Assembly: GCA_964016885.1 (NCBI GenBank)
Contig: OZ024743.1
Location: forward strand, 144,460,001-144,524,000
Length of the DNA: 64,000 nucleotides
Source: Eledone cirrhosa
Taxonomy: Eukaryota
Direction of reading: 5' to 3'
Of this stretch, positions 10,104 through 38,500 are shown in pieces. The notes below the pieces were generated by a model, which worked only from the letters and a program-made list of their open reading frames with translations, was not told the origin of the DNA and did no database searches. Every line of letters begins with the position of its first letter. The first letter of the stretch is position 1. The position numbers and the translations under genes were made by a program.

Positions 10104-10133
10104 ATTTTTAATAATAATAATAATAATAATAAT

Positions 10134-13100: not shown

Positions 13101-15951
13101 TGTGTGGTCCGTGTAGCTGACTATCTTGAATTGTGGACAGCCTATGCTAGACTTATCTATTTCCCTACAAAATACTCTATCTAGATATGATCTGGATGAC
13201 CCGATGCGGTTTGTCCAAGTCCACATTAGCACACTCGGGAAATCCAATCGTTACCTGTCAAACAGTTCAAAACGCCTGAGCAAGTTGGTGAGACTCTTTC
13301 ACCCTCCACCCCTATCCACTAATCCCACACAGTCCCAGCGTGCATCTAAGATCCCGTTCCAGTCGCCCACTAACACTAAAGAGCGGGACGTTCCAAGAAA
13401 GGTCTCCAGACGCCGGAAGAAATCAGGCCGCCCTGCTCCTGTCGGGGCATAGACGGCCACTAACCTGAAAGCTTGCCCGTCTCCGCTGGTCACGTCCAGC
13501 GCCACCAACTTACCCTCTGGGTCCAGGAAGATTTCCCGTATGGCAAGATCCAAACCTCTCCGAAACAGCAAAGCAACTCCACCCCCCGATCCAGGACGGC
13601 TGGGAGATGCGTACACATCGTAGCCGCCGAAGATCGGTGCGAAGGCCCGTGCTTCGGAGATTCTGGTCTCGCTGATGGCCACTACATCTATGTTTAGTGA
13701 CCTGAGATCGTTGAGCAGGTGGCCCTGCTTCCATGACGACCCCAAGCCACGCGCATTTATGCTGCCTATTCTGAGTGAGGTCATGTTGAAATGGAGTGGA
13801 AAAGATGGGAAAGACCACTTACCTTACTTCTCGTAGAGGAAGGACGGTTTTTCCATCCTTTTCACTGCTTGTGGCCTCCTCAGGAAGGATGTCCTTATAA
13901 ATCCTCCTGGAGAGTGCTTGTCGGAAGTCTCCGATGTCTTTGGGGAATTTTTGTTTTAGTATCATGTACGTTTTCTGTGTGATGCGAGTGATTTGTATGT
14001 ATGGAGGTGGTGTGAATTTTTGGGTTGTTGTGTAGTCTTTTTCTGTGATGCTGGTGTTGTGTTGGATGTAGTGTAATAATTGGTTGTTGTTCAAATTTAA
14101 TGCTGTGTAGTGTGTATCGTTTTGGTTGTTTTGTTTTGTTTGCGTTTGTTGTGGGTTTGTTTCTGTTTCGCATTTTGGTGACTTTTGTGGTGTAGGTGAT
14201 GGTGGTGTTAGGGTTAATGATGGTGATGGGGTTGGTGATGCTGGTGTGGATGGTAGCATATCTGTCCTAACTTTTTTGTTTGTTAATTTATTTGTTTCCC
14301 TCTGTATTTTGTTTTTGGAGGGGGAAGGAAGAGAATTTTTTCTTTTTTGGTTTCTTTTTTTCTTTTTTCCTGATACCGTTTCCCACTCCTCGTCGTCACA
14401 ATCTGTCTCCAGTTGTGATAGGCCGGGGAGTGGAAAATCCTCCACAGGCGTTAGTTTTGGTTGTGGCGTGGTGGATGGTGTAGGCGCTGGTGCTAGTTCT
14501 GAAGCGTTGGGTGGTGGTGGTGTTGGTTTTGCTATTGTTGCTGGGGTTGTTGCTGTTATAGTTGCTTCTGTTGTTGCTGCTACAGTTGTTGCTGCCATCT
14601 CTGCTACTGGTGGTGTTGATGGTTGAGTCACTGGGGTGGGTAAGAGAGGTAGCCTCAACCTTTTAGCCTGAGGGCAGAAAGCCCTTAGGTGGGTTCCTTC
14701 ACCACAAACGACACACCTAGGCCTTCTGCCCTCGACAATTACGGTGAGGTGGCTGCCGTCAGTGAGGTCTATTACCTCTGGGATCTCCTCAATGCTTTTT
14801 TGGTCCGCTTGGATCAGGAGCTCCATCCCCGATCCGGACCAGTTCTCCTGCTTTTCTTTTGCTATTGCTATTATCTTTGTGTTGGCTTCGATGCCGGCGA
14901 GGACGGCCGCTATTAGCCAGGGAATTTCGATGGCCGGTGGAACGTGGGTCACCCTGATCTTTACGAGTCTCTGGCCACAATAGCTTGGGACGAGTGTGAA
15001 GTCGTCACTTCTTAATGGGGCCATGGAGTGTTCTCTAGCCTCCTCTGGTGTTTCAAAGAACACGTCCACTGTTCCATACTTCTGCCCACATCTGATATGG
15101 GTTTTTCTTGCCCACACATGTCCCATTGGGACTCGGATGCCCGTTCCACTCGGCGCGATTTTACATTAATTGTTCGATACGACACGGTGCATAGACGGCG
15201 ATGATCCATTTTATTAGGTGTGTGTGGAGGGGGGGGGGGATGAGGCTGACCCTGTACCCATCTTTCTTTACCATTTTTTTGGCATTTTCTAATTCCTCCT
15301 GAGTTACCTGAAATGCTTCGCACTGATTTGCTACTCTGGCAAAACTCAGAGTGGTTTTTTTAATGTCATTGTTGCTGTTGTTGTTATCGTTATTTTTGTT
15401 ATTAATTTTAATTTCAATTGTGGTGGTGGTGACGTCAGTTGTGTTCGGTGGGGAAGAGTCCATTTTGCTTGAATTCATTTCGACATCACGAGTTAATTTA
15501 TTTTCTTCTTTTGTTTCTGTTGTCGCGGTGGTGGTGGGGGTGGTGGTTTTCGCGGTGGTGGTGGCGGCTTTAACACCTGCAGTCATTGGTAATGGCGGGA
15601 AATGAATGTCTGCCTGAGACAAATTAAAAATATTGCTACTGCTTAAATTTTTGTGTTGGCAAACGTAGTAATATTTACAATGGTGGTGTCGGTGTGAGGT
15701 GTTAGTTTATGAGGAAGGCTCTCAGCTTCGTGTGGCTGTGAGACTTCCATGTTTATTTTTCAAAGAAATTTTTTTGATAATTATAAATGTTTAAATTTTT
15801 GGCACAAGGCCCCAATCTTTTTGGGTGTCCTTTTCGGAAAACAATTATATACAATTAACAATAAAATTTTCCATAAATGGCAATTTTTAACAAACGGAAA
15901 CAAGAAACCTTTGCGGAGCTCACGATGATACGATTTACTACGTAGGTCGCC
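10134..15951 (-). mobile_element. Tx1-like L1-clade retrotransposon A, full length, frameshifted (ORF1 about 13819-15750; APE-RT ORF2 about 10300-13784)
   Basis: ORF1 knuckle CVVCGEGTHLRAFC; APE motifs SINARGL, ISET, GDWN, SYLDRVF; RT motifs FRPITLLN, LDQSKAFDRV, QGCPLS, YADD; C-terminal CPRC..ETVLH; AATAAA plus (ATT)n tail; both flanks are (AAT)n. Confidence 0.95.
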
Positions 15952-16005
<54 letters not shown>

Positions 16006-16010
16006 AATAA

Positions 16011-17692
16011 TGCTTTCTTTATTAACCACAAGGGTTTACATAATGTAGACATTAAGGACAGTACAGGACAATACAGGACGGTACAAATGGGCATTTCTGC
16101 GTGTAAAAAAACAAAACAGAGGATGTAAGAAACAAATAACAATGAAAAATTCCCCAATACGGGGCAGACTTCCAAGGGACATTTGTGGAGAAAGCCCATT
16201 AAAAAGCCACAGTGACCCTGACCACCAGGGCAAGTGCCCTCTCCCAGTTTTCCACCTTTAATTTACAGACACATACTCAGAGTAGGCCCATTCACTCGGG
16301 CCATTCTTGCCTCTCTCACCCATCTTTCAACACAATACTGAGAAGAGAGCACTTCCCTCTCTACCCTGATTTTCCTTTTCAAATGAAATTTGAAAAAGTT
16401 AATCAGGGCATCACCGAAGAGGTAAGTGCTCGTCTTAAGCCCTTTCAAACGTGTTCACCATACTATCTCTTTCGCCATGGCCACCAGACAGATAAAAACT
16501 GCCTTCCCTTCTCGGCTAAAGGAAGAGGGCGGGGCAATCCTCACGATGGACTCAGCTGATAGCTGATAGCTGGATCCGTCCTACACGTGACAGAAGGTGT
16601 TCGACATAAACCCAGAAGTCAACAATGCTCGAACACTGGACGAGTCCGTGCAGGACGGTTTCGTCGCCCTGCGCGCATGTCCGACATGCCTGGCTGACGG
16701 TACTTCCATGCCAGTAGAGTTTATCCCGAACTGGCAAAGCTCCTCGGTAGCACTGCCAGACCAGCGATTTCTGGAAGTTGTCCATAGGTACCGGCCCGAA
16801 AGTTCTTCCGAAGAGATTTGCTAGTTGATTTTCATCGACGCCTAGAGTTTCCCGAAGTACGTTGTCGCTCTTCCCCTCCACTAATCATCTATAGAACGCC
16901 AAGATGGAGTTTCCACCGATCACATTGCCCGATTGGTCGAGGCCTGTGAGGGGATGGTGGGGGAGGGGGTGGGGGGAGGCTGATCCTGTACCCATCTTTT
17001 TTTACCATTCTCTTGGCTTCATTTAATTCCTCCTGGCTTACCTCGATTGTTTCGCTTTTCTTGGCTGCTTTGGCAAACGACACATTTTGTTTCGCGGTGG
17101 TGTTGTTGTTGTTGTTGTTGTTATTCTCATTGTTATTGTTTTTGCTGTTGCTGTTGTTATTTTTCGTTTCAGTTGTGGTGGAGGTGGTGGTGGTGTCAGT
17201 GGTGTTCGGCGTGGAAGAGTCGATTCTGGGTGAATCCATTTCGATGTCACGAGATAATAATTTATTTTTGGGGGTTTCTGTTGTCGTTGTGGTGGTGGTG
17301 ATGGTGGCGGCTTTAACACCTGCAGTTATTGGTAATGGCGGGAAATCCATGTCTTTATGCGGCAATTCTAAATAATTCAAAATGCTATTAATTATATTTT
17401 CAGTGTTGGGAACCTTAGCAAGGCTTACAATAGTGTTGGTGTTGGTGTTGGTGGTGGTGGGGAGGGGAGGGGTCTGTTAAAAACAGTAAATTTGTCGTCC
17501 ATGTTTTTTTTCAAAGAAATATTTTGTTTGATAAATAAAAAGTTTAAGTTTTTTGTGTCCTTTTCAGAAAGCAATATATGTGAACTTATAAACACTTAAC
17601 AACAACATTTTTCCATAACTGGCAATTTGAAACAACTGAAAACAACAAACCTTTGAGGAGCTCACGATAATACGATTTCCTACGTAGGTCGC
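16011..17692 (-). mobile_element. Tx1-like element B: both termini kept, about 4 kb internal deletion
   Basis: 3' 0.9 kb nearly identical to A; 5' end ggcgacctacgtag as in A; ORF1 N-terminus fused to ORF2 C-terminus at about 16950. Confidence 0.92.
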
Positions 17693-17693
17693 C

Positions 17694-17732
<39 letters not shown>

Positions 17733-17748
17733 TAATAAAAATAATAAT

Positions 17749-17935
17749 AATTGTTTCTACTTTTGGCACAAGGCCAGCAATTATCCCAGTATATTACTGG
17801 TACTTTATTTTATCGACCCCGTAAGGAAGAAAGGCAAAGCTAACCTCGGCGGGATTTGAACTCAGATCATAAAGGACCGTTATTCTATGCTGCAAAGCAT
17901 ATCGCCCGACTCTCTACCGATTCTGCCAATTCACC
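17749..17935 (-). mobile_element. Full-length SINE in (AAT)n between Tx1 B and C
   Basis: A/B boxes, central domain and tail as above. Confidence 0.9.
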
Positions 17936-17960
17936 AATAATAATAATAATAATAATAATA

Positions 17961-20900
17961 ATGATTTCTTTATTGGCCACAAGGGCTGCGATCAAGAAAA
18001 ACATTATAGACGGCACAGGACGATACGATGTGGGTTTTGTGCGTGTAAAGATTTTTATTATTTATATAAGAAAAGAAAAAAAGGACAGAAACATATATAT
18101 ATATATAATCAATAAAAATGAAAATTGAAACAATGAAAAATTCCCCAATATGGGGGAAACCTCTGAGGGTTACTCGTGGCGAAAACCACACAAAAGACCA
18201 CGGCCACCCTGACCACCAGGGCAAGCGCCCTCTCTCAATTTTTCCATTTCTCAAACTACAGGCGTATATTCAGAGCGGTCCCGTTCACTCGGACCATTCT
18301 CGCTACATTCACCCACCTTTCAACAAACTTGCTAGAAAGCAGCACTTGCCTCTCCACCCTGATTTTCCTCTTCAAGTAAAACTTGAAAAAGTTAATTAGG
18401 GATTCGCCGAAGAGGAAAGTGTCTGTCTTTAACCCTTTCAACCTTGTCCACCACACAATCTCTTTCGCCATGGCCACCAGGCAGATGAAAACCGCCTGCC
18501 ATTCCTCCTCGAAGGAAGACGGCGAGACCATCTGCACAATGGACTCAGCTGATAGCCGGATCCGTCCTACACGCGACAGCAGGTGTGCGACATAGCTCCA
18601 CAAGTCAGCAATGCTCGGGCACTGAACGAGTGCGTGCACGACGGTTTCGTCGCTCTGCGCGCATCTCCGACAGGCTCGGCTGACGGCACTTTCGTGCCTG
18701 TAGAGCTTATCTCGAACCGGTAACGCTCCCCGGTAGCACTGCTAGGCCAGGGATTTTTGCAAGTTATCCATAGGCCCTGGGCTGAAAGTTCTCCGGAAGA
18801 GAGCAAACAGCTGAACTTCTTCGACGCCCAGGATCTCTCCGAGAACGTCGTCGCTCTTCCCCTCCACTATTCCTCTATAGAACGCCGAGGTGGATGTTAC
18901 ACCGATACTGGTGCCCAGCTGGCAGAGGGCAGTGAGCACCTGGAGACATTCCAGTTTCCAAGCGCTATCCCTCGGTCCTTTGCTGACCCATGACTGCAGC
19001 ACCGTTAAGGAGACGAGTTGTGGGAAAACGTGGCTGGCGAACGGCGACCACACCTGTTCAACGTCAAAGAAGCACCAGAGATGTCGCAGCCTCAGCGCAT
19101 GTTTGCGCATCATCAGCCATGGCATGCCCAGTCCTCCACGCAACGGGTGTTGACAGCAGATGGACGGTCTTACCATGGGAGCGCGTCCCTTCCACAAAAA
19201 GCGGAAGAGGAGACGCTCCATTTTGGTGAGAGTTGGGCCGGGGCAAGGGACGACGGTGAGGCGGTAGCAGATGACGGATGCGATGTACGCATTCGCCACC
19301 TCCGCCCAGCCTTTCAGGGACATCTTCCTCTCAGCCCATTTTTGGGTGAGGGCGGCCACCCTGCTCGTCACCTCGCTCCAGTTTTTCTCCATCTGGAGGT
19401 CCGGTCCGAACCAGACCCCAAGCAATTTAACCGGTCCGGGCGTCCAACGCCCCACGACACTGTCGGACGGCATGGACTTTCCTCTCCAGGTGCCTAGCTG
19501 CAAGCCCACCGACTTTTCCTGGTTTATCTTTGCTCCTGTCATCGCTTCGTATTCCTTGAGAGCGGTGCCGAGCATCTGGACGTGTCTGGTGCACAACACC
19601 ACCACGGTGATGTCGTCGGCGTAAGCCGACTCGGATTTCTCGCTTCCTAGTTCGCGTAAGACGCCCCTCATCACCGCCAGTTTGTGCAGTAACGGTTCGA
19701 GAGCCAATGCGTACAAGAGAGACGAGAGGGGACAACCCTGGCGGTCCGAGTGCATGATGCTGAATGGCTGCGACAGGTGACCGTTCACCCACACAACTGA
19801 GCAGATATCGCTGTACTTCGCAGCGATCCAACCACAAACGGGCCCGAAACCGGCTGCCTCAAGGACCGCCGCCAGGTACCGATGGTCGACCCTATCGAAT
19901 ACTTTGGATTGATCCAAGTTGATCAGGGCCCCACCCGTGCCAGGTTCCTTAACCACCCTCTCTATGATGTATCGCATGAGGTGGAGGTTGTCGTGTATGG
20001 ATCTGTCCGGAATGGCGCATGTCTGCGCCTCTTCCACCAGACCCTTGACGACAAGCGCCAACCTACCTCGTTGCTAACACCTAGGCCAAAATCTTGAACT
20101 CTGCGTTTAGCAGGGTTATGGACCTGAAGTTATCGATAACATCCCCCTTGTTTGGGTCTTTTCTCAGCAGCGCCACCGCTCCCCGGCTCACAAAGCTGGG
20201 AATGCTCCCGTTCTGCTGCCAGTTGCAGTAGACGTCTGCCAAGAGGTCACCGAACAAGTCTGGCATAAATGCATAAAACTCGTAGGGCAGACCATCGAAA
20301 CCTAGAGATTTACCCCTCGTGCAGTTAGCCATTGCTTCCCGTATTTCACCAGCTGTTATTGGCTTTTCGCAACACTGTGCTACGGTCGTCGAGAGCCGAG
20401 GCAGTCCGTCGAGGTAGGCACTGAAGTCCATACCCCGATCCGGCCCGCTGCTGCTCCCAAACAGTTCAGCAAAGTGCTGCTGAAAAGTTTCACACATCTA
20501 CTCGGGGTCGAGCAACACGCGCCCGTTTTGGTCAGATTAAGACCGAATTGTGGCTTTGTTGTCACGTCGCGCCTCTGCCACCCGGGCCCATTGGACGGCT
20601 TTTGTCCCCTTGTGTTTCAGAGCATGCGCTCTAGCTCCGACAACGCAGCCTTCGTGTTTTGCGTTGAAGAATTGGTCGAGTGCCAATCTCGCCGCAAGCA
20701 CGTCGGTTGCAATGCCTGTCCTAAACGCCTCTTCTAGCTTCCTCTACTCTATTTTCCTCTATCACTAGTCCTTTGCTAAACCTTATCGACTCTACTTTAA
20801 TTGCCTTTTTCAGGGTGAACCACCACCTGTTGTTGACGATCGCTCCCGTCAACGCCCGCTTAACTAATACGCTAATCCGGTCTCTGTAGGTTTGCGCGCC

Positions 20901-23900
20901 GAGAAAGATGCGTTCAGCTTCCAGTAACCGCGGGTCCTTGTCTATGAAGTCTGTCTATGTCGATCTCACAGATCACAAATTTGTGGTCTGTGTAGTCGAC
21001 TATTTTAAATTGTGGACAACTTATACTAGCCTTATCTAGTTCTCTGCAGAATACCCTATCGAGATGCAATCTGGATGACCCGATGCGGTTTGTCCATGTC
21101 CACATTGGCACATTCGGGTGATCCAGTCGATACCTGTCAGACAGTTCAAAACGTCTGAGCAGGTTGGTGAGGCTCTTGCACCCTCCTCCCCTATCCACTA
21201 GCCCCACACAATCCCAGCGTGCATCCGAGATACCGTTCCAGTCGCCCACTAACACTAAAGAGCGGGACGTTCCAAGAAAGGTACCTAGACGTCTGAAGAA
21301 ATCTAGCCGTCCTGTCCCTGTCGGGGCATGGACGGCTATTAGCCTGAAAGCGTTGTCTTCGGTGCCGCCTACGTCCAGCACCACCGACTTACCTTCTGGG
21401 TCCAGGAAGATGGTCCGTATGGCGAGATCCAAGCCTTTCCGAAACAACACAACCACTCCGCCTCCCGCTCCCGGACGGCTCGGAGATGCGTACACCTCGT
21501 AACCGTCGAAGATCGGTGCGAAAGCTTGCATTTCGGAGATTCTCGTCTCGCTGATGGCCACCACGTCTATGTTTTGTGACCTGAGGTCTTTAAGCAAGTG
21601 ACCCTGCTTCCAAACCGAGCTCAAGCCACGCATGTTTACACTTCCGATCCTGAATACGGCCATGTTGGGTGAGGAACGGGGCAAGTGAGAAAGGATAACT
21701 TACCTTGATCGTCTGGTGAAGGGACCGTTGAATCGTCCCTTCGGCTGGTCGCCGGCTCTTCTGTGAGTATATCCGAGTATACTTTCCGGTTGAGTGTCCC
21801 TCCTAGGTCTCTGAAATCACCAACTGCGTTGGGGAATTTCATTTTAATGTTTGTGTATTGTTTCTGTGATATTCTTACCGGTCTTTTATTCGTTGGTGTT
21901 TTGATTGGTGCTGGTATTATGTAGTCGTGCTGTGAAATGTCTGTGTTCAATTATGTAAGTCATTAGTTTCTTGTTGTGTGTATTTATTGCTGTGCATTTC
22001 TTTTTCTGGGGGTGTGGTGTGGTTCTGCTATTTTCTTGTCGTTGTTGCTGGGTGTGTGTGTTTTGTTGTGTTTGCGATGTTGGTGCTTGTGGTGGTGTTG
22101 TTGAAGGTGTTGTTGTTGTTGGCGGTGGGGTTACCGCCGATGGAGATGGTAGTGCTAGTGTGGGTGGTGATGGTGTTGGTGGTGTTGCTGCTGTAAGTCT
22201 TTTTGCAGTAGCCTTTACCCCTTTTTCATTTCTTCCCTCCTTTCCCTGCGCTGCTTCTGCGTTTGTGCCTTCTTGCGACCTTTTGCCACCCCTCTCTCAC
22301 CTCACACTCCATGTCCGATTCTGTGAGGTCGGGGAGGGGTACCATGATGTTTGCAGTGGAGTCTCTGCTGCAGCTGCAGTTGGTATTACTGTTGTTGTTG
22401 TTAATACCTCCACTGCTGCTGCTGTTCTTGATTTCCGTGGCGTGGGTACGGGTGCCACGGACCTATCCTTCCTGCTTGCCACCTGTCCTGTTGCTGGTAG
22501 CAGTGGAGTCGGTTTCGGAAGGAGGGGGGTTTTCTCCTTTCTCAGGGTCTTCTCATTGCAGAAGGCCCTGAGGTGAGTCTTCGACCCACAGCGAAAGCAT
22601 TTCGGGCGTTTGCTCTCAACACTTATGGGAAGTTGAGTGCCGTTATCGAAATCTATCACATCCGGGATAGCTTCGATGCACTCCTGGTTGCTTTGAATTA
22701 ACATCTCAATGGAGGCGCCGACCCAATCTTCTCGTACTTTTTTCTGTACTTGCAGTACGGTTGTTTTGTCCTCTATTCCGACGAGGACAGACGCGGCCAG
22801 CCAAGAAGGGGCCATCCCGGGGGGGGGGGGGGGAACTTGGATCAGTTTGACCCTCACAATTTTTTGCCCGCAGTAGGAGGGCACAACACCATTTCCTCGC
22901 TCCTTAGGGTCACTAAGGATTGAGACTTTGCCTCCTGGGGTGTGGCAAAAAGCACATCCACGGTGGCATATTTCTTGCCTCGGGTGATATGCGTTTTCCG
23001 CTGCCACACACACACACAGACCTTAAGGCTTTTTGTATTTGATCCTCTGTGGCTCTTTCAACCCTACGTGATTTTGTGCTTACTGTACGGTACGTGACCG
23101 TACAGTGCTGTTGGGTTTCGAAAAATTCTTCAGCTTGCTCGGTGTCCGGTTTTCGTCACCATCTTCTTTGCTTCCTGTAATTCCTCATTTGTTATAAGGA
23201 TGGTTTCCATGTTCTTTGCGATACCTGCAAAGGAGATTGTTTTTTCTTTGTTGTTGTTGTTGTTGTTGTTGTCGTCAGAGCTGCTGTTACTTTTGTTGTT
23301 GCTGCTGGTACTACGACCGCCGCCGCCGCCGCTGTTGCTGTTGTTGTTGTTGTTGTTGTTGCTGTTGTTGCTGCTGCTGTTGTTGTTGCTGTTGCTGCTG
23401 CTGCTGCTGTTATTACAGCTGCTGCTGCTGCTGTTATTACAGCTGCTGCTGCTATTCTTTATGACGTCAGACGAATGAAATGGCTTTCGGTATTTAACGC
23501 ACACATCTTTCGTCGTTGTCGTCATCGTGGAGAAATGGTCCACGGTACGCGCGTTCTCTTGATGAAGAACGTTACGAGAAACTACATTTTCTTTTTCTTT
23601 AATGGCGTCGCTTGTGAAAGAGGCGACAGAGGCGACACCACATTTAGAGAAGGGAGAGAGACAATTTTTTTCTGACGTAATGACGATTGGGGAAGAAGAC
23701 AGAAGGAGTGGGAGAGACTTGTGAAAATTCTTTTTTGTAGCCATGTTTTTTTTACGGTTTAAAATGAATATTGGGCACAAAACCCCAATATCTGGTTATT
23801 TAACCCCGAAGGGCCAAATAACGGACAGAAAGACCCCTCTCACGAGGAGGAGGGTGTCTTATCTACAATTTGGTTCAAGTTTTAAACAATTTACAATTGT

Positions 23901-23959
23901 TATAACGGTTAAAAATTACTATACCTTACAAAGCCGAGCCTCCGTCAACCATGGCATTC
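17961..23959 (-). mobile_element. Tx1-like element C, full length, frameshifted
   Basis: ORF1 CFRCGSKTHLRAFC; APE 20914-21663; RT 18742-20497 with YADD; (AAT)n on both sides. Confidence 0.95.
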
Positions 23960-23990
<31 letters not shown>

Positions 23991-23993
<3 letters not shown>

Positions 23994-26350
23994 CTTTCGT
24001 TATTAACCACAAGGGTTGACACAAAGTATAACATTAAGGACAACACAGGACAATACAGGACGGTACAATTGGGCATTTCTGCGGGTAAAAAAAAACAAAA
24101 ACAGAAGATGTAACAAAAAGAAAACAATGAAAAATTCCCCAATGGGGGGGAGGGGAGATTTCCGAGGGTCGCTCGTGGAGAAAGCCCACAACAAGTGCCT
24201 TCTTCCAGTTTTCCTCCTACGATGCTACAAGCACACGATCAGGGTAGGCCCATTCACACGGGCCATTCTTACCTCTCTCACCCACCTTTCAACAAACTGG
24301 CTGGAGGTCAGCACTTCCCTCTCCACCCCGATTTTTCTTTTCAGGTGAAACCTGAAAAAGTTAATGAGGGCATCATCGAAGAGGAAAGTACTCGTCTACA
24401 ATCCTTTCAGACGTGTCCACCATACGACCTGTTTTACCATGGCCACCAGGCAAATGAAGACTGCCTGCCCTTCCCGGCTAAAGGAAGGCGGCGAGGCAAT
24501 CCTCACGATGGACTCTGCTGATAGCCGGATCCGTCCTACACGCGACAGCAGATGTTCGACATAAACCCACAAGTCAGCAATGCTCGGACACTGGACGAGT
24601 GTGTGCAGGACTGTTTTGTTGCCCTGCGCGCATCTCGGACATGCCCGGCTGACGGCACTTCCATGCCTGTAGAGTTTATCCCGAACTTGCAAAGCTGCTC
24701 GGTAGCACTGCCAGGCCAGGGATTTCTGGAAGTTGTCGATAGGTCCCGGCCCGAAAGTTCTTCCGAAGAGATTGGCTAGTTCATTTTCGTCGACTCCCAG
24801 AGTCTCCCCAAGTACGTCGTCGCTCTTCCCCTCCACTAATCCTCTATAGAACGACAAGGTGGAGTTTTCACCGATCGCATACCCCGACTGGTCAAAGGCT
24901 GTAAGCGTATGAACATTCCAGTCTCCAAGCGCTCCCTCTCAGTCTTCGCTTGACCCAGGACTGCAGCTCCGTCAAGGAGTCGAGCTGGGGAAACACGCGT
25001 CTAGCAAACCGCCACCACACCTAATCACCGTCGAGGAGGAGAAGTCGCAGCCTGAGCGCGTGTCTGCGCATCATTAGCCACAGCATGGCCAGCCCTCCAC
25101 GTAGCGGGTGTTGACAGCAGATGGACCGCCTGACCATCGGAGCGCGTTCCTTCCACAAAAAGCGAAAGAGCAAACGTTACAGCGCAGTCAGGCGAGGCTT
25201 AGGACAAGGCAAGACGGTCAGGGGGTAGTAGATCACTGACGCGATGTACGCATTCGCCACCTCCGCTTGACCTTTCAGGGATAGCTTCCTTTCTGCCCAT
25301 CCCAAGGCGAGAGAAGCCACCCTGCTCGTCACCTCGTCCCAGCTTTTGTCCGTCTGGAGGTCATGGCCGAACCAGACCCCTAGCAATTTAACCGGTCCGT
25401 CCGTCCAGCGACCGACGACGCTGTTAGACGGCATGGACCTGCCTCTTCAAATGCCGATCTGCAGGCCCACCGACTCTTCCTGGTTGATCATTGCTTCTGT
25501 CACCGCCTCGTATTCTCTTAGTGTAGTGCCGATCGCCTCGATGTGTTTGGCGTTCGACACCACTACGGTGACGTCGTCCGCATATGCTGACACGGTTCTT
25601 CTGCATCCCAGTTTGCGCGGAACCCCCCTCAACATCTCCAATTTGTGCAGTAATGGCTCGGGAGTCAATACGTAAAACAGGGATGAGAGGGGGCATCCTT
25701 GGCGGACCAAGCGCATGATGTTGAATGGTTCCGAAATGTGACCGTTCACTCTCACCACATAGCAGATGTCGCTGTGCATGGCAGCAATCCAGCCTCTGAA
25801 GACAGGCCCAAAGGCAGCCGCTCCCAGGACTGCCGCTAGATAACGATGGTCGACCCTATCGAACTCTTCGACTGATTTAAATGGATCAAGGACCCACGCG
25901 TGACAGGTTCCCTAGTTACCCTCTCTAAGATGTATCGCATGAGGTGGAGGTTGTCGTGGATGGATCTGTCGGGAATGGCGCATGTCTGTGCCCCTCCCAC
26001 CAGACCACCAACGACAAGCGCCAACCTCTTTGCTAGCACCTTAGCCAAAATCTTGAACTCTGTGTTTAGCAGAGTTATGGGCCTGAAATTATCTATGTTA
26101 TCCCCCTTGTTCGGATCCTTTCTCAGCAGCTCCACCGCTCCTCGGCCCACAGAGCTGGGAATTCTCCCGTTCTGCTGCCAGTTGCAGTAGACGTCCGCTA
26201 AGATGTCTCCGAACAAGTCTGGCACATATACGTAAAGTTAGTAGGGCAGACCATCCAAACCAGGCGATTTACCCATTGTGTAGCCAGTCACTGCCTCTCG
26301 TACTTCAGCAGCTGTTATCGGCTTTTCGCACACTCCGTCTCAGTGGATAA
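23991..26350 (-). mobile_element. Tx1-like element D, 5'-truncated
   Basis: RT and C-terminal fragments; 3' end aacccttgtggttaataacgaaagc(att)n. Confidence 0.93.
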
Positions 26351-26362
26351 ACTTATATATAT

Positions 26363-26779: not shown

Positions 26780-29700
26780 TAGAGAGATAAGTTTCTATTT
26801 ATTAGCCACGAGGGCACAAAAGAAGGGGACAAATACAAGGGGGGGGGGGTTACATAAAAGAACGAGTAAAAAACAAATAACAAATATAAAATTAACAATA
26901 CAGCCCTCAATAGGGAGGAGGCGTTTTGGGGGTCGCCCCCCCCCCCGAAAAAGTGTGCAACCCTTTTCCTTAGGAGCACAGAGAGAGGGTGCTCCCTTGA
27001 AATTCCATCTATCCACCTACAGGCTGATAAAGAGAGAAGGCCCATTCACACGGGCCATTCTTGCTACTTTCACCCACCTTTCATAAAACTTGCTGGGGTA
27101 GAGCACCTCTCTCTCCATTCTGATCCTTCTCTTAAAATGGTATTTAAAGAAAAGGACCAGTTGTTGGCCGGAGAGAAAGGTGTCCGACCTCAGCCCTTTC
27201 AAACGTGTCCACCATACCACCTCTTTCACTATGGCTATTACACAGAGGAAGACCGCCTCTCCTTCATTTTTGAAGGGGGGAGGCGGCTTGATCGTTACAA
27301 TGGACTCGGTGGTCAACCGGATTGGTGCCACCCGCGACAGCAGTCGTTCGACATAGACCCACAGATCGGCAACGCTCGGCCCGAGCAGTGTACCAATGCG
27401 TGCGCAACAGTTTCCTTGTCGCGCACGCATCTGGGACAGATCTTTTTCGAGGGGTCCCTACCCGGGCGCCCGTGTCTGTAGAGGCCTTTCTCAAACGAGT
27501 AGCAGCCCTCGGTAGCACTGCCAGGCCAGGGACCTCTGGAAGTTGTCCATAGGACCCGGGCCAAATATCCTACCGAATAGGCTGGCCAGTTCGTCTTCTT
27601 CCATTCCTAGGGCTTTTCCGAGGGCATCGTCGCACCTGCTAACCACCAGCCCTCTATAGAATGACGAGGTGGAGTCTCCACCGATAGCCGGGTCCGCCTG
27701 TCAGAGAGCGATGAGCTCCTGGGCACACTCGGTGTGCCAGGCGCCCAGTTTTCTCGGTCTTTGCTTGACCCAGGACTGCAACTCGGTGAGCGAGACGAGT
27801 CTCGGAAAGGCTCGCCTCACAAAAGGGGCCCACATCGGTTGACCGGTGAGGAATACCTGGAGGTGCCGTACCCTTATTGCGTGTTTACGCATCAGCAGCC
27901 ACAGCATCCTCAGCCTCCTTTCGAAGGGTATTGACATCAGATAGATGTCCTCCCCAAAGGAGCCCGCTTCTTCCAAAGGAATTGGAAGAGTGAGCGCTTC
28001 ATTTTGGTGAGCGTTTCCCTTGGGCAAGACACGACGGTCAGGAGGTAATAGATGACGGACGCTATATAAGCGTGCGCCACCTCCGCCCGACCTTTCAGGG
28101 ATAGTTTGCACTCGGCCCACTTCTGGGTCAGCGTAAACACCCTGTTCGATACCTCACCCCAGTTCTTATCCACCTGGAGGTCTGGCCCGAACCAGACCCC
28201 GAGCAACTTCACCGGGCCCTCCGTCCAACGTCCGACGACGCCATTGGAGGCCATCGGTTTGCCCCTCCACTCGCCGAGCTGCAAACCGACTGACTTGTCC
28301 CGGTTCAACTTAGCCCTTGTAAACCTTTCGTATTCCTCCAGTAAAGTGCCGATCGCCCCGATTTCCGAGGCGGTTGACACCATTACTGTCACGTCATCGA
28401 GTAGGCCGACACCGCTTTCCGCAATACCGGTTCCCAAAAGGTGCCCCGTAACAACTCCAACTTCCGCAGCAGTGGCTCGAGGGCCAATAGATACAGAAGG
28501 GAGGAGAGAGGGCATCCCTGTCGGATGGACCGCGTGATTTCGAACGGCTCCGAGAGGTAGCCGCTCACCTTGAACCTAGAGCAGATGCGGCTGCTGTGCA
28601 TGGCAGTGATCCAACCCCTGAAAACGAGTTCGAAACCTGCCGCCACTAGCACCGCATCCAGGTAACGATGGTCGACCCTATCGAACGCCTTAGATTGATC
28701 CAAGTTGATCAGGGCCCCAACAAAGCCGGGTTCGTTCCCAACCCTCTCTATGATGTATCGCATGAGGTGGAGGTTGTCGTGAATGGACCTGGATGGGATA
28801 GCGCATGTCTGCGTATCTCCCACCAGGTTGCCAACGACAAGCGCCAACTCTTTGCTAACACCTTGACCAAAATCTTTAACTCTGCATTTAGCCGAGTTAT
28901 GGGCCTGAAATTACTTATTTCATCCCTCTTGTTCTCGTCCTTCCTCACTAGCGAGACTACGCCCTTGGTCTCAGAACAGGGAATTCTCCCGTTCTGTTGC
29001 CAGTTGCAGTAGACCGTCTCGAGGAGATCGAAGAACAAGTCTGGCATACTTAAATACAGTTCGTATGGAAGACCATCGAGGCCCGGAGATTTGCGTCTGT
29101 CGCATTGGCTCAGCACGTCCCCTATTTCAGCAGCTGAGATCGGCCTCTCGCAAGACTTCGCCTCCTCGTCCGAAAGACGCGGCAGGCCGTCGAGGTATGG
29201 ACAGAAGTCTACATCCACATCCGGCCTCCCTCCCCTTCCTAACAATCGGGCAAAGTGCTTTGAAAGACCTCGCACATCTGCGTAGGTTCAAGGACCATCC
29301 GTCCATCCTGATCTCGCAAAGACCGGATAGTGGATCTAATCCCACTTTTGGCTTCTGTCACGCAAGCCCAACTAACAGCTTTGGTCCCCTCGTTTCCCAG
29401 AGCACGTATTTTGCTTCGGACAACGCAGCCTTCGTGTTTCGCTTCGAAGAACTGGCCCAAGGCCGTTCTCGATGCTAGCACTCTGGCTACGTCGCCGCTT
29501 CTAATTGCCTCTTCTACACTATCTACCAACTCACTTTCCTTCCTATTTCTATCTGAGGCTAACTCCTTACTAACACCTATTGAAACTACTCTAATCTCTC
29601 TTTTGAGAGAGCCCCACCACCAACCGCTCCTTAACTAAAGTACTAATCCGGTCCCTGTAAGCTTTACTTGCCGGTAAGGACAAGTTGAGCTTCCAGTAAC

Positions 29701-32515
29701 CGGGTCCCTGTCTATGCGTTCTATCAAGGTTGACTATGCAGGTCACTAACTTGTGATCTGAATAGCCAACCATGAGCATTTCTGGACAACTTAAAAATTC
29801 CCTCTCCTTATTTCTAACTAAGAACCTATCTAGGTACGATCTAGATTGACCGTTGTGGTTTGTCCAAGTCCAGGTTGTCACAGTCGGAAAATCTAGTCGA
29901 TATCTATCAGCCAGGTCGAATCGGCCGATTAACCCCTTGAGGCTGTTACAACCCCCTCTATCGGGACATGCCCCCACATAGTCCCAACGTGCATCTAGGA
30001 TACAATTCCAGTCCCCCACTAAAAGCAAGGAGCGGGACGTCCCTAGAAAAGTCTCCAGACGATGGAAGAAATCCGACCGCGTTGACCCAAAAGGGCCGTA
30101 GACGGCGACCAGCCTAAAAGCTCCGCCTTCACCACTGCCAAGGTCCAGAACCACTAGTCGACCCTCCGAGTCCAAGTGTACCGTCTGTGTAGCGAGACGC
30201 AGATGTTTTTGCAGCAGAACGACAACCCCACCCCCACTGACAGAGATATGCGTGCATCTCAAAGTCATCAAAGGTGGGGGCCAGCTGTCCAACGCTGCTG
30301 ATCCGGGCCTCGCAAATAACCATCACATTTATACATCGTGACCTGAGGTCATTTAGAAGCATTGCTTGCTTCCGAAGTGAGCCCAGGCCACGAGCATTTA
30401 GACAACCTACTCTCAACACAGCCATGTTGGTGGTAAAGAGAAAAGGCACTTACCTCTCTGCGTCCCGAGGACCGGGCCTCACAATTTCCATGGGGGTGGG
30501 GGAGGGGTTGTTGGGTGGGGTGGTGGTTTGTGGAAGTGTAGGGGCATCAGTGTGTTGTGGGGTTGGGGCGTTTGTAGTTGAGTGGGTGTCTGGGTAGGGG
30601 GTGGGGAAATGTTTTTAGGAGGATACGGTTGATTGGCTTGGCGCAGGGGGGCGGGACACGTCCTCCGTGAAATTGATTTTTAATGTTTTAAATAAGTTCA
30701 TTGGGACTTTAACCATTTTTAAATGTGGTAGTCCCACAGCAGTCACAAAATTAGGCCCTTCGGTCCAAACCGAAGGTTTTCAAATTTGTTTTCATTAATT
30801 CTTTGTTGTTTGTGTTCATGTATGTATATTGTAAAGTTTTTTTTTGCGTTGCAGTTAATGTTGTGTAATGGGGAGGGGTGTTTTCTATATAGTTTGTTTT
30901 CTCTTGGGGAGGGTTTATTTTAATATGTGTGTCTGTGGTGCGCCTCCTCTACTTTCTTTTTACTACTTGGAAAGGATCTCCGTCTTGCGACAAAAGGGGA
31001 TCGTCTTCCGTATTGGGTGGGAGGGGTATATTTTCCGGTAGTGTTTGCGGTGTGTGTGTTTTTGTATTTGTTTTGGGTGGGGAGGGGTTGGTGGGACAGT
31101 GTTCTGTGTTGTTTTTTCACGTTTTTGTTGTTGTTGTGGCGGTGGTAGTGGCGGTGGTGGAGGTGGTGTTGTTGGTTTTTGTTGTCGTTGTGGTGGTGGT
31201 GGTGTATTTAGTTGTTTTTGTGGTGGTGGTGTTGGTTGTTTTTGTTGTTGTGGTGTTTGTAGCAAATGTCTTTTAGGTGTTAGCTGAGGACAGGCAGCCC
31301 TCAGGTGACCTCTGTCACCACAGAGGTAACAGGAGGGTCGCCTACCCTCCACAATGATGTTGAGGTAGTTACGGTCATCCAGCATGACGCGTTCAGGGAT
31401 TTGGGCGATACGTTCCGGCCTTATTTTGGGTCAAAATTTCGATGCCCGTTCCACTGAACGCGTCGCCTGATGCCTTCCCTACTGAGATTAAATTGTCCTC
31501 GTCTAAATTGAGGAAACCGGTTAGTAACCACCAGTACTCAATGTTCGGGATGATTGTGTTGATCCAAATTCTTTGTGTTTTTTTTACCCATGTAGGTTGG
31601 GAAAAAGGTGTAGTTCGTGGAACAAATTGGCGACACAGAGTATTTTTTCGCCGCCAATTCGTCTTTCATCAATATGGATAAACTCCCATAGAGTTTATCC
31701 TTTTGTATAAATACTATGTCCTTCATGGCCTCTTTTAGGATCAACTGAATCTCAGATTGAGATGGCTGTGATGTTTTTTTGGTTTTGTTTGCAATTGTAC
31801 GGAATACAACAGTTCTTAATTCAGTCTGTTTTTTAAGTTCTGGGGGCGAATTGATGGAAAAAGATCTGTTTTCGCCAAAAGATACGTATTTTTTGGCTTT
31901 TTCAAGCATTTCTCTTGCGTTTGATATATCTTCAAGCACATAAGTGACGGATTTTTTAGCAGTCTGTGCAAAGGATACTTTTTATCGTTGTTGGTGTTTG
32001 AGTTGTTCTGTTTCTCGTTGTAGTTTTCAATTTTTTCAGTGTTGGAGTTGGAGTTATTTTCATTTTTGTTGCTGCTGTTTTCCTCATTTGGAGTGTTGGT
32101 GTTGTCATTGTTAGTGTTTTCGTTGTTAATTTTGTTGTAACTAATTGGGTTTGCACCCGTATTTACATGTTTGTTGGGCATATCACCGTTCTCAGAGTCT
32201 TTTAAAAAGTTGAAGGGGGAAAGCAAAGCGCTTTGTACCGCTTACTTCTTTCTCTCCTCTTCCTTAGTGGGCGTGACATTTCCGTTCAAATGTGATACAG
32301 ATATGGCGTCTATTTTTGACATGCGAGTCAACAAAAACTTTTCAGGAGTAGTTTTTACCCCCAAAAGGGGTAAAATACGATGACCACCAGTCTACAGACC
32401 TAGCCGGGAGGTTAAAAGACACGAAGACAACACAATAAAAAACAAACACTTACTGTTAATAGGTAAAAAATTCAGAAAGGTAGGAGCCGATGTTGCAAGC
32501 GTCTATACTATGCGA
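26780..32515 (-). mobile_element. Tx1-like element E, full length, degraded, in (GATA)n
   Basis: ORF1 CYLCGDRGHLRAAC; APE CLNARGL/GDWN/SDH; RT; flanks (TAGA)n. Confidence 0.93.
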
Positions 32516-32527
32516 GATAGATAGATA

Positions 32528-35500
32528 TATTTCTTTATTTGCCACAAGGCTGCACAAGAAAAGGGGACAATAAATAGACATGCCGGGGATTTTACATACA
32601 GTCGCGTAAAAAAATATAAAACAAACAATTACAACAATCGAAATCCCCAATAGGGGGGAAGCGCCACAAATGGGTTGTTTAATACCCCGTCGATAGAACA
32701 ACCCTCCACTTCAGAAGCCTGTTGTGCAAGTGCTCCTTTCTTCCTTTTGCTCTCATCTTTAACCTACAGGCTTATAAACAGAGAAGGCCCAATCACTCGG
32801 GCCACTTTCGCTTCATTCACCCACCTTTCAGTAAATTTACTGGGGTGCAGTGCCTCTCTCTCCACTCTGATTCTCCTTCTAAAGTGATACTTAAAGAAGG
32901 GAATCAATTGTTGTCCGGAGAGAAAGGCATCTGTCCTCAGTCCTCTTAATCTCGTCCACCATATAACTTCTTTCACTATAGCCACTGTACAGAGGAAAAC
33001 CGCCTCTCTTTCGTTATTGAAAGAGGCTGGCGGTTTGATCCTTACTATAGACTCGGCAGTCAACTGGCTTTGTCCCATACGCGACAGCAGTTGTTCTGCA
33101 TAGTTCCACAGGTCGGTTACGCCCGGGCAGTGTACAATTGCGTGCAGGACGGTTTCAATGTCCTGCGCGCATCTTGGACACGTCCTCTTGGAAGGATCCC
33201 TGCCGGGGCGTCCGTACCTGTATATCTTGTCACGAATCGGTAGAGCTCCTCGGTAGCACTGCCAGGCCAGGGACCCCAAACAGACTGGTGAGCTCATCGT
33301 CTTCGACGCCCAGAGTCTCTCCGAGCACGTTGTCGCCCTTGTAACGTACAATCCCTTTATAGAATGTTGAAGTAGAGTCTCCACTGATTGCTGTGCCCCC
33401 TTGCCAGAGGACTGTGAGCGCCTGGGTGCATTCAATGTGCCAGGCGCCCATCGTTTTCGGTCTTTTCTTGACCCAGGACTGCAGCTCTGTCAGCGAGACG
33501 AGCTGCGGGAAAGCCTGTCTCACAAACGGTGCCCACACAGGTTGAGGGTCGGTGAGGAATACCTGGAGATGCCGCTACCTCAGCGCATGTTTGCGCATCA
33601 TCAGCCACGGCATTCCCAGCCCTCCGTTGGAAGGGTGCTTACAGCAGACGGTTCTCCTCACCATCGGAGCCTGCTTCTTCCACAGAAACTGGAAGAGCAT
33701 GCGTTCCATCTTGGCGAGGTGTTCACGGGGACAAGGCACGACAGTCAAGCGGTAGTAGATGACGGACGCTATGAAAGTGTTCGCCACCTCCGCTCGACCT
33801 TTCAAGGACAGTTTGCACTCTGCCCACTTCTGGGTGAGTGCAATCACCTTGGTCGTGACCTCGTTCCAGTTTTTCTCCACCTGGAGGTCTAGACCGAACC
33901 AGACCTCGAGCAATTTCACCGGTCCGTCCGTCCAGCGTCTAACGACGCTGTCGGACGTCATCGGTTTGCCTCTCCACGTACCGAGCTGCAAACCGACAGA
34001 TGTGTCCGGGTTTAATTTTGTTCCCGTCAGCGTTTCGTATTCTTTCAGTAAGTTGCCGATCACCCCGATTTCCGAGGTGCTCGACACCATTACCATCACG
34101 TCGTCGGCATAAGCCGACGCCGCTTTGCGCAGTGCCGGTTCTAGAGGGATGCCCTGCAACAGCTCCAATTTCCGCAGTAGTGGCTCTAGAGTCAATACAT
34201 ACAGAATGGAGGAGAGAGGGCACCTCTGTCGAATGGAACGCGTGATTGCGAACGGCTCCGATAGGTAGCCGTTTACCTTAACCCTCGAGCAGATGCTGGC
34301 GTGCATCGCCTCGATCCAGCCTCTGAAAACGGGACCGAAACCGGCCGCCTTGAGAACCGCTTCCAAGTATCGATGGTCGACCCTATCGAATGACTTAGAC
34401 TGATCCAAATTGATCAGAGCCCCACCGAAGCCGGGTTTACTACCCACCCTCTCTATGATATATCGCATGAGGTGGAGGTTGTCGTGTATGGACCTGGTCG
34501 GGATTGTACACGTTTGCGCTTTCCCTACCAGGTTCCCGACGACAAGCGCCAACCTCGTCGCTAGCACCTTGGCCAAAATCTTTAACTCTGTGTTGAGCAG
34601 AGTTATGGGCCTGAAGTTGTTAATTTCGTCCCCCTTGTTCTCGTCTTTCCTTACTACACCCTTGCCTGCAGAACTGGGAATTCTCCCGTTCTGCTGCCAA
34701 TTGCAGTAGACGGCTTCGAGGACGCCAGAGAACAAGTCCGGCATGCCTATGTAAAACTCATAGAGTAGACCATCTAGATCGGGTGACTTGCGTTTCCCGC
34801 AGCGGCCCAGAGCGTCCCGTATCTCAGTGTCCGTGATAGGTCTTTAGCAGAGAAGTTATATTTAGAGAGTTGTTATGTTGCCACAAGGAACCAGGTTTGG
34901 TAGAAAGATATGATAGGAATATCGACAACGACTTTAGCTTGTTTTTACATAATTTATTAACAAAGGTTAAGAAGTGAATTAAGCTGGCATGCCAAGAATA
35001 ATGAAATAATTCAATTAAGATTACAAGAGAAAATATGGTCGACTGGCTGAGGCGTTTGGCCAGGTCCGTAGTAATGTTTTGTTGTTACATATTGTTTGTA
35101 CTTACGGAGCAAAAGAACAAGTGGTGTTTACCTTAGCATGGTCAAGCTGCGAGTCTGAGATTTCTCAAATCTTCGCGGGCTATTTCTCCCTCAGAACGTG
35201 TAGGGATACATCCTCTTCTCCTGGCGCTGATTGGCTGAGCTGAGCCAAATCACGCACAGAGAATGTATGTGAGCCCGCGGAATGTAGGTCACTACATCAC
35301 CTCCGAGCAGATTTTTAGCCGAAAATCGTTAACGATGAAGCCAAGGACCCACAAAGTACAGTTTACACCCCCCCCCCCCTTCTAGACGGTAGTTGATACA
35401 GATTATTGAATCAGCAAGAACAAATGCTGAAAGAGCACATCAGTGAAAAAATAATTGAGCAGAAAGATGCATGCAAGAAAAAAAATGAGGCGCTACGGGC

Positions 35501-38500
35501 CGTGTTGAGCCGCTGTCAAATGACTAGCCGTTTTGTAGTTTATACGTGACCACCAAAGGTCTAACAGAAAACGGATAAAGTCTGACATGGGCGAAGTTGC
35601 GGTTCTTGCATTAAATGTTAATGGTAAGTGTTGTACCAGTAGCTGTGGACGAAGCTATTATGGTAGTTTACCAGTGCTGGCAAGAAGATGATGGGTAGGC
35701 AAGAAAATGTTGGCCTCCCAGATGTATTGCCGAATGTGCTAGGGAGCCAGGAAAAAATGGCTGGTTGCTTTGATAAGAAAAAAAGCAAGCTGAATCTCTA
35801 GGTGGGTTGCAGTCCCACAATTCGGGCGAATTCACAGAAGTGGTGGAAATGCTGACAAGTCCAGTTCTATTTGTTGTTTTCCCGGTGAGTTGGGTAAGAT
35901 AACAAGATAGAGGTTGTTATGGACGATGAATGTGCAACGAGATGCGAAACTGTTTGAGTTCAGCTGCAACTAGCATTCTCGTGTTGCGGTGCAGGTGAAT
36001 TAAGCTGCAAGTGTCGATAGCATGTTTTGGTACCTCCAGAAGGTGAAAAGGGATCTCGCAGAATATTATGACGCTTGAAGATCACATACCATAGACAACA
36101 ACATGTTTGTGTGTGTATATATGCAGGCATGTAATACAGCAAAGAAAATGTGTGCGTGCGGTCACATATACAATGATAGAGAGAAATGAATTTACATATA
36201 ATACAGTTTTAAAAAAATAAATGTCCAAAATAAATGCCTGAAAAAAAAGGAAGAAAGAAAGAATTGTTTCTTTTCTTTTAACAAAAAGTTCACTTCTTTT
36301 TTCTTTGGGAACGCTCTTACTAGGGAGCTAGTAGAGTTGTTGTTGTTGTTAAAGCAAAGTCACAATGAATCTTCTGTAGAGTCGAAGTCTAGCGTTGAAG
36401 AACCTAGAGTCACCAATATGGCGGCCACGTCTGACGCCATAATGGTGAGAAAACTAATTTCTTAATTTCTCTAGTGAATTGAGCTGGCATGCCAAGAATA
36501 ATGAAATAATTCAATTAAGATTACAAGAGAAAATACGGTCGACTGGCTGAGGCGTTTGGCCAGGCCCGTAGGAATGTTTTGTTGTTACATATTGTTTGTG
36601 CTTACGGAGCAAAAGAAGAATTGGTGTTTACCTTAGCATGGTCAAGCTGCGAGTCTTAGATTTCTCAAATCTTCACGGGCTATTTCTCCCTCAGAACGCG
36701 TAGGGATACATCCTCTTCTCCTGGCGCTGATTGGCTGAGCTGAGCCAAATCACGCACAGAGAATGTATGTGAGCCTGCGGAATGTAGGTCATTACAGGTC
36801 TTTCGCAGAATTCGGCGTTCGTGTTCGAGAGACGCGGCAGGCCGTCGAGATATGAACTAAAGTCCATTGCCCCGTTCGGCTCACCGTCGTTCTGCTCAAA
36901 TAGTCGCGTAAACTGCCGCTGAAAGGCCGCGCATATTTGCTTGGGGTCAAGTAGCACGCGTCCGTTTTGGTCTTTCAAAGACCGAATCGTGGACTTGTTG
37001 CCACTTTTTGCCTCCGCCACTCGGGCCCAGCTGACAGCTTTCGCTCTTTCGTTTCCTAGAGCACGTGTTTTGCTTCTGACTACACAGCCTTCGTGTTTCG
37101 CATCGAAGAACTGGTCCAGTGCCGTTCTCGACGCTAACACTCTAGCCGCGTTGCCACTTCTAAGTGCCTCCTCTACCTTGGCTACTAGTTCTCTTTCTCT
37201 TTTGTTTTTCTCTAAGGCTAACTCTCTGCTAAACCCTATCTATTCTATTCTAATTGCTTTCTTGAGAGAGTACCACCATCTATTGTTGACGATGGCTCCC
37301 GTTAACTGTTGCTTGACTAGTCTACTTATCCGTTCACTGTAAGCTTTACGTGCCGAAAACGACACGTTCAGCTTCCAGTATCCGGGTCCTTGTTTATGTG
37401 TTCTATCACGGTTGACTAATCAGACGACTAATTTGTGATCTGAATAGGCAACCATTTGCATTCGTGGACAGCTTAACATCTCTTTGTCCCTTTCTCTAAT
37501 GAAGAACCTATCTAAATACGATCTAGATGTCACGCTGTGGTTTGCCCACGTCCACTGTGGTGCAGTCGAGAAATCCAGTCGATACCTATCGGCCAGTTGG
37601 AATTGGCCGATTAAAGTTTTGAGGCTGTTGCACCACCCTCTACTGGCTGTTGCACCACCCTCTACATAGTCCCATCGTGCATCTAGGATACCATTCCAGT
37701 CCCTCACTAAAGGTAAGGAGCGTGACCTTCCCAGAAAAGACTCTAGATGCTTAAAGAAGTCTGGCCGTGATTGCGATTGCCTGGTCGCGGCATAAACGGC
37801 CACCAGTCTGAAGGCTCCACCTCCAATACTGTTCACGTCTAGGACTACCAGTCTACTCTCCGGGTCCAAGTGTACTTGCTATACTTCGACGTCCAAGTTC
37901 TTCCGAAACATGACAGCCACTCCACCTCCACCTCCTGGCTGACAGAGAGATGCGTAGATCTCAAAGTCGTCGAAGATGGGGGTTAGTTGCTGCCTGTTGT
38001 GGATCCTGGACTCGGTGATGGCTATCACATCCATACCGTGTGACCTAAGGTCGTTTAAAAGTTGGGCCTGTTTCCAGGGCATCCCTAGGCCACGCACATT
38101 CACGCTTCCAACTCGTAAACTAGCCATGTTGGTGAAGAAGAGTTGGCGAAAAAGGACGAAAGGTGCACTTACCTTTTTGTTTCCTGGAGATCGGGTTGTT
38201 CAATCTCCATTTGGATGCTGGATGGGGTGTTGGGTGGGGTGGGGAAACATTTTAACAGGACGCGGTTGATGGGTTTCTGGCAGGGGTTGCCCACGTCCTG
38301 TGAACATTTATTTTTCAGGTCATTATAGGTTTCCATAGAAACCCTTATAAGTTTAAGGTGTGGAGACGATTCTGCCTTGACGAAAGTTTTGCCCTCCGTC
38401 TCCATCTTAGGGTTTTGGGAGATGACCTCCATCAAACTCTTGTTGTTTGTGTTGATGTATGCGTATTGTTGTTTGTGTTTTTGTTGTGTTGTTTTAGTTT

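Follow-up and report, generated by a model that had tools for sequence, protein, structure and literature searches.

A conserved U1-type splice donor at the ORF1 end of a LINE lineage in Eledone cirrhosa, its predicted long-range RNA partner, and hybrid elements joined at the donor

The stretch of the Eledone cirrhosa genome analysed here (contig OZ024743.1, positions 144,460,001 to 144,524,000; 64,000 nucleotides, referred to as the window) contains six copies of two-gene long interspersed nuclear elements (LINEs), all on the minus strand. They form a head-to-tail stack that runs from about 40160 down to 10109, with F first and A last (F, E, D, C, B, A). Our subject is the short motif AG/GTAAGT at the end of their first open reading frame (ORF1), which reads as a donor site for splicing by the U1 small nuclear RNA (snRNA). 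Elements C (17950-23990) and A (10109-15951) are full-length with broken ORFs, and A ends in an ATT tail. Element E (26760-32520) has a TCTA-type tail, and F (32517-40160) carries a 1.9-kb insertion in ORF2 at 34851-36797. The remaining two are partial: D (23960-26346) is a 5'-truncated A/Y-type 3' part lacking the ORF1 end, and B (15960-17690) begins like A, with head and ORF1 start, and switches near 16950 to an A/Y-type 3' end; a short sequence is shared by both sides of this junction, which is away from any donor.

An earlier note on this DNA had placed the motif in A, C, E, and F, followed by a pyrimidine-rich spacer of 22-39 nt leading to the ATG of ORF2, and all four minus-strand 8-mers were recovered. 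The donor of A lies at 13817-13824 (exon end 13823; ORF1 stop TAA at 13821-13819), that of C at 21698-21705 (exon end 21704), that of E at 30448-30455, and that of F at 38167-38174, the latter two also including the ORF1 stop. The spacers are 77-79% pyrimidine and measure 32 nt in A (13785-13816; ATG 13784-13782), 34 nt in C (21664-21697; ATG 21663-21661), 22 nt in E (30426-30447; ATG 30425-30423), and 39 nt in F (38128-38166; ATG 38127-38125). The TAA within the motif had been read as the ORF1 stop of A and F, which is correct and applies to E as well; in family C the site is framed as Gly-Lys-TGA, and the copy of C in the window has lost the TGA. Poor alignability of the ORF1 ends, also claimed, holds between the pair A/C and the pair E/F but not within either pair. 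The polypyrimidine-CAG sites described for the 3' untranslated regions (3' UTRs) of A (10219-10240), B (16097), and D (24079) are present. Their reported absence from C and F is true of four of four intact F copies, but the F copy of the window has a CAG at 32550 and C possesses a moderate acceptor-like CAG, ending at 17986, which is retained in five copies of the family. Further exact 8-mers occur at 21387, within ORF2 of C, and, as seven chance minus-strand copies (43085-43637), within a CCTA/TACA satellite at 42942-43926.

An intact relative of these elements encodes an ORF1 protein of 699 and an ORF2 protein of 1139 amino acids. ORF2 matches, above cut-off, the apurinic/apyrimidinic endonuclease (APE, PF03372), reverse transcriptase (RT, PF00078), and zf-RVT (PF13966) domains, and among named sequences it comes closest to one from Argonauta hians, at 74% across the RT region. 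ORF1 proteins of the Tx1 clade are expected to carry CCHC knuckles and RNA-binding domains (RBDs); here, the zf-CCHC match of E (8e-4) fell below cut-off and A gave none, Atlas matches were to CCHC/ZCCHC3-RBD clusters (0.90-0.93), and a protein homologue search with ORF1 found none. No relative named Tx1 appeared among the protein matches. The Tx1 label was that of the earlier note, and a place in this clade is suggested by the architecture and by head-to-tail stacking at ATT or TCTA tails rather than by a tree against named Tx1 sequences. A codon pattern for the N-terminus of ORF2 has 10,481 exact matches in the genome, and individual families reach at least 2,220 (A), 485 (M), and 635 (H) copies. 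For comparison, we used 15 hand-picked, related families, each with one representative aligned on the donor site; identity in ORF2 is 68-97%, and synonymous divergence (dS) of ORF2 between the A clade and the E/F clade is about 1.0-1.1.

The donor is conserved throughout this set. Positions -1, +1, +2, +5, and +6 are invariant in 15 of 15 families, while A is found in 14 families at -2, in 14 at +3, and in 12 at +4; the variants at +3/+4 are GTAAGT, GTGAGT, GTAGGT, and GTATGT, and beyond +7 only pyrimidine richness is kept. A sixteenth family, seen once, has CAG/GTAATT. When loci were picked by ORF2 codons alone, 27 of 30, a sample that includes tandem copies and is not independent, had the site with at most one mismatch (16 exact, 11 with one mismatch), compared to 0.6% of shuffles, and the other three are damaged copies. 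The exact 8-mer was present in 28/30 C-type, 24/30 E-type, and 26/30 F-type loci, whereas 28 of the 30 loci retrieved with the A protein were members of a young family, Y, whose site carries a single change, at -2. The 5' end of the U1 snRNA of this genome forms seven or eight Watson-Crick matches out of nine with the donor in all 15 families. The U1 snRNA genes themselves are arranged in tandem arrays with 2.67-kb spacing (G000:C2:169.4-181.0 Mb and C1128).

ORF1 crosses the donor in phase 2 (Arg-stop), in phase 1 (Gly-Lys-stop; C, C2, and J), or in phase 0 (H, with the stop 30 nt later), where the phases of C, J, and M were read from broken copies and C was resolved separately; the ORF1 stops are TAA, TAG, or TGA. 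Given that the site is read in three phases, protein constraint cannot account for its conservation. Metagenomes yielded distant L1/Tx1-like relatives (23-41% identity), and of 40 such loci just one has a site with no more than one mismatch, which is chance level; another 40 of the 80 loci had been dropped for lack of a readable ORF2 start. By sequence comparison, the motif is a trait of the L1/Tx1-like lineage found here. Consensus-type variation, the three reading frames, and three donor-exact hybrid junctions (see below) agree with the earlier proposal of a splice donor, and we consider its identity as a genuine donor well supported.

Folding predictions add a second feature, which the earlier note had overlooked: the pyrimidine-rich spacer is modelled as one arm of a long-range helix, here called the clamp, with the start of the 3' UTR. 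In 12 of 15 families, the best partner of donor plus spacer among about 600 scanning windows per element was the 65 nt following the ORF2 stop (z scores of -3.8 to -7.6 against 300 shuffles), the complementarity itself extending over the first 45 nt. For the copies described above, the predicted 3' arms lie at approximately 10340-10383 in A (after the ORF2 stop at about 10386-10384; -36.0 kcal/mol, z -3.9), 18210-18255 in C (stop 18258-18256; -43.7 kcal/mol, z -3.5), 26975-27016 in E (stop 27019-27017; -34.2 kcal/mol, z -5.0), and 32722-32763 in F (stop 32766-32764; -39.7 kcal/mol), all on the minus strand. Cognate arms pair with a mean energy of -41.2 kcal/mol versus -32.4 kcal/mol for non-cognate arms, a difference reached in 0 of 100,000 permutations among families that are related to each other. 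Altered donors in M and G are matched by altered partner strands. The clamp is predicted to be more stable on the sense than on the antisense strand in 15 of 15 families and 77 of its 488 pairs are G-U, which points to selection on RNA. The ORF1 stop falls within the helix, whose edge is about 4 nt short of the ORF2 start. Six families (E, E2, E3, H, J, and M2) have +2 to +4 unpaired in this model, yet these bases are kept, and in H and J the TAA is retained although it is neither ORF1 stop nor clamp-paired. Local donor hairpins are weak (z +0.65 to -2.7). That the clamp forms in vivo we infer from these models.

The young family Y shows what the donor may have done in the past. Its 5' part, including ORF1, is C sequence precisely as far as the C exon end (21704 in the window copy); from there on it follows A, resuming just after a CAG in ORF1 (13865-13867, minus strand; 42 nt before the A donor). 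Similarity to C is 91% in ORF1 and similarity to A is 97% in ORF2. The expansion of Y is evident from the share of loci given above, and its parents C and A lie in this order in the window, 7.8 kb apart. A second junction, found in 1 of 30 unbiased loci, connects the exon end of M to E2 after a CAG, with a 23-nt duplication; further upstream, ORF1 of this first M-E2 copy fits no family representative well, making later recombination likely. A third, present in two copies and obtained with a donor-anchored pattern, leads from the M exon end to an M-E2 hybrid after another CAG. Across 265 ORF2-start regions, 34 of 34 go-back junction calls end at donor position -1 (C to A, M to E2, M to the M-E2 hybrid, and one deleted Y copy), compared to 0 of 18 deletions. 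All three junctions resume after CAG, for which the probability is about 0.03 given an AG (CAG makes up 2/15, 2/5, and 5/10 of the AGs), and the next donor follows each acceptor by less than 100 nt, which would be expected under exon definition. The hybrids keep spacer, ORF2, and 3' UTR from one parent, which could be due to the clamp. Bypass of the helix by RT was rejected as a source of hybrids: take-off would have to occur some 2 kb away from the 3' arm, and the M helix extends past the junction. ORF1 can also be exchanged without a donor-exact junction, as indicated by E and E2, whose ORF2 is 97% alike but whose ORF1 is only 71% alike. The chimeric mRNA suggested in the earlier note is thereby borne out in the form of retroposed hybrids, and occasional donor splicing is the likely origin of three or more types of hybrid element, among them the large young family Y.

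Other spliced products were sought with patterns anchored on exon ends, each covering part of the possible joins. They returned 5, 13, 10, 2, 5, 13, 18, 1, 0, and 1 matches, comprising small indels, microhomology deletions, two inversions, unrelated matches, Y variants, and the two M-hybrid copies. In the patterns used, there was no retrocopy running from the donor to the 3' UTR CAG for Y (5 matches) or C/C2 (13 matches), none from the donor to the ORF2-stop TAG for E/E3 (2 matches) or F (5 matches), and no copy lacking a mini-intron for Y or F. The ORF1-only mRNA through the 3' UTR CAG, which the earlier note had considered along with genomic copies missing exactly this interval, consequently gains no support from the joins tested, and its acceptor is not common to all families. 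We did not count one F copy whose join, close to an AG in the early part of ORF2, misses a clean splice by one base. In two A copies, recovered by a donor-anchored pattern, the donor is the starting point of an inversion that folds back onto the local hairpin. Contigs of seven runs of unknown kind (X3-X5 look genomic) gave no donor joint among the matches listed for a Y copy, which is evidence neither way.

How might an element benefit from a donor that it would rarely use? We propose that U1 would bind the site at the ORF1 end while the 3.4-kb ORF2 is being transcribed, and that this would favor full-length RNA by reducing premature 3' end formation; U1 at the donor of the EVD element has been proposed to block premature termination (PMC5580714). 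An incomplete RNA with an exposed donor would be retained in the nucleus, as described for unspliced mRNA with an exposed 5' splice site motif (PMC4380460). Once ORF2 is transcribed, the helix with the start of the 3' UTR would mask the donor and keep the finished RNA from being spliced. Where elements stand in tandem, read-through transcripts would occasionally be spliced from the donor to a CAG shortly before the donor of the next element, with U1 defining the exon, and retroposition of such RNA would combine promoter and ORF1 of one family with spacer, ORF2, and 3' UTR of another. U1 docking on nascent RNA with later masking by the clamp, acting as a check for completeness, is the benefit we prefer, though our belief in it stops somewhat short of even. 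We are more hesitant about the full proposal, in which U1 is held until the 3' UTR clamps the donor, only whole RNA escapes splicing or retention, and leaks in arrays repeatedly splice neighbors to supply LINE families with new promoters and ORF1s; it is a possibility that we put forward tentatively.

Several observations weigh against this proposal. The protective role of U1 is drawn from analogy, and the sense strands of ORF2 contain almost no AATAAA, which weakens a simple telescripting role. The clamp fails in three of the 15 families (G, z -2.4; I, -1.6; N, -0.4). In only five families does the cognate pair take first place within its row, and in ten it is among the top two. Predicted donor accessibility is lowered by the clamp in ten families, not in C, C2, I, and N, and is raised in M2, and local hairpins alone already cover part of the donor without the 3' UTR. 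Concerning the junctions, 29 of the 34 go-back calls are Y or Y derivatives and about ten came from donor-anchored patterns; only Y and M-E2 were found without such a search, and the contrast with deletions covers the 265 regions. The acceptor in A has a poor pyrimidine tract. Finally, all three junctions share a 2-nt AG between both sides, which leaves room for template switching at microhomologies. A purely historical account would combine this with common ancestry of the site or selection for an Arg-stop ending, which most families do have. We regard it as very improbable: the site is read in three frames, the noncoding +5 and +6 are invariant at a dS of about 1 in an otherwise variable spacer, and deletions scatter while go-back junctions do not.

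Of the functional alternatives, the one next to our proposal in probability takes the donor as serving mainly for regulated removal of ORF2, to the ORF2-stop TAG, the 3' UTR CAG, or an early-ORF2 site, so that an ORF1-only mRNA is made and the clamp sets the ratio. In 13 of 15 families, ORF2 closes with TAG behind a pyrimidine-rich stretch, and in 11 a G comes next; the strongest distal CAG site belongs to A and Y, whose ORF2 ends in TAA, and C has a moderate one. However, the G-G-T after the ORF2 stop is already accounted for by pairing beside the ATG, no single acceptor is common to the families, and retrocopies are missing for the Y, C/C2, E/E3, and F joins although some 300 nt would suffice. 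Cis-preference, known for L1, could explain their absence. The EVD element with its shGAG RNA offers a precedent (PMC5580714), and we judge this reading unlikely, if still a serious contender. Fusion of ORF1 to ORF2 through a mini-intron of 42-54 nt, from the donor to an AG just past the ORF2 ATG, would be in frame for the window copies of A, E, and F. It is out of frame for the phases of C, C2, J, and H, four of four intact F copies lack the AG needed, and no intron-less copy of Y or F was found, though cis-preference should make such copies common; this reading is largely refuted and we give it next to no credence. The clamp might instead be a translation device that brings together ORF1 stop, ORF2 start, and 3' UTR, in termination-reinitiation or cis-preference, with the U1 match being secondary. 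The position of the helix, across the ORF1 stop and up to the ORF2 start, fits this idea, and termination-reinitiation is used by SART1 and L1 (PMC5972666). Overlapping stop and start codons of the SART1 type are absent, with spacers of 19-40 nt after the donor, except in family H: there, ORF2 begins with ATA in place of ATG (first 100 of 635 matches), overlapped by the ORF1 TAG, while frames of 1146 codons are intact (e.g. G000:C1:12375054) and ORF2 evolves at a ratio of nonsynonymous to synonymous divergence of about 0.22 relative to sister families, so that AUG-free reinitiation is likely. Since translation leaves unexplained both the donor-exact junctions and the invariance of U1-critical positions in three frames, including unpaired ones, we consider this role rather improbable as the principal explanation; it and the completeness check by U1 and clamp are not mutually exclusive.

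Elsewhere in the window, the insertion in ORF2 of element F has terminal direct repeats of about 270 nt and no long ORF, and is possibly a small element of the long terminal repeat (LTR) type. Copies of a tRNA-like short interspersed nuclear element (SINE) occur at 17737-17934, within the ATT tail between C and B, and at 9900-10100, 9280-9685, 44417-44603, and 59810-60004; ARAGORN and Rfam scans of the window were empty and missed these copies. An exon with a VWA domain (4663-5655, minus) is on the same strand as the LINE array, which may thus be located inside a host intron, and is overlapped on the opposite strand by an RT fragment with C2H2 fingers (5128-6480, plus). Long open frames without a Pfam match are found at 46859-49001 (plus), 57986-58915 (minus), and 51630-52433 (plus); the first two are similar to each other and, judging by their motifs, presumably of the Penelope type.

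The closest parallel to the donor is found in the Arabidopsis Ty1/copia element EVD. Its structural gene ends with a U1-type donor that yields the shGAG RNA, and U1 was suggested to act there in splicing as well as in preventing premature termination (PMC5580714). The conserved U1-type donor at the end of a structural gene is common to both systems. EVD, however, is an LTR element with one ORF, a short intron, and a nearby acceptor and poly(A) site, whereas the LINEs described here have two ORFs, no shared acceptor, and a predicted helix over the donor with a range of 3.4 kb. The hybrids resemble SVA_F1 (MAST2) and pt_SVA_D6 (STK40), subfamilies founded by retroposed RNA with a 5' part ending at a donor and joined after an AG (PMC6139936): as in SVA_F1, the 5' part of Y ends at the exon end of a donor, joins after an AG, and the product has expanded. 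In SVA, a host exon entered a non-autonomous element; in Y, one element was joined to another, giving an autonomous family with intact ORF1 (699 amino acids) and ORF2 (1139 amino acids). The SpIREs of human L1 are likewise genomic copies of spliced RNA, with internal 5' UTR/ORF1 deletions, and are described as dead ends (PMC5860796). The copies reported here likely also stem from spliced LINE RNA, but are inter-element joins, one of which was strongly amplified. With SART1 and L1, our elements share a bicistronic RNA, a short spacer, and RNA structure by the junction (PMC5972666), yet the SART1 structure is local and downstream, while the partner strand proposed here lies beyond ORF2. Kibi and Koshi, microsatellite-targeting members of the Tx1 clade, are similar as animal non-LTR elements with APE and RT and copies stacked at simple-repeat tails; neither donor nor clamp is mentioned for them in the excerpts of PMC4494074. 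In Octopus vulgaris, 13 recently active L1-Tx1 families have been reported, and splicing is not mentioned in the excerpts of that study (PMC13282606).

Our literature search, whose coverage excluded most subscription papers, found no LINE described with such a donor or clamp. To our knowledge, two questions about LINEs are open: what keeps their intronless two-gene RNA intact, and by what route 5' ends and ORF1 are exchanged during evolution. One short element now ties the two together, given its conserved donor, a co-varying long-range partner, and datable hybrids with nameable parents. Splicing would then be the likely founder of an intact, amplified LINE family instead of a dead end.

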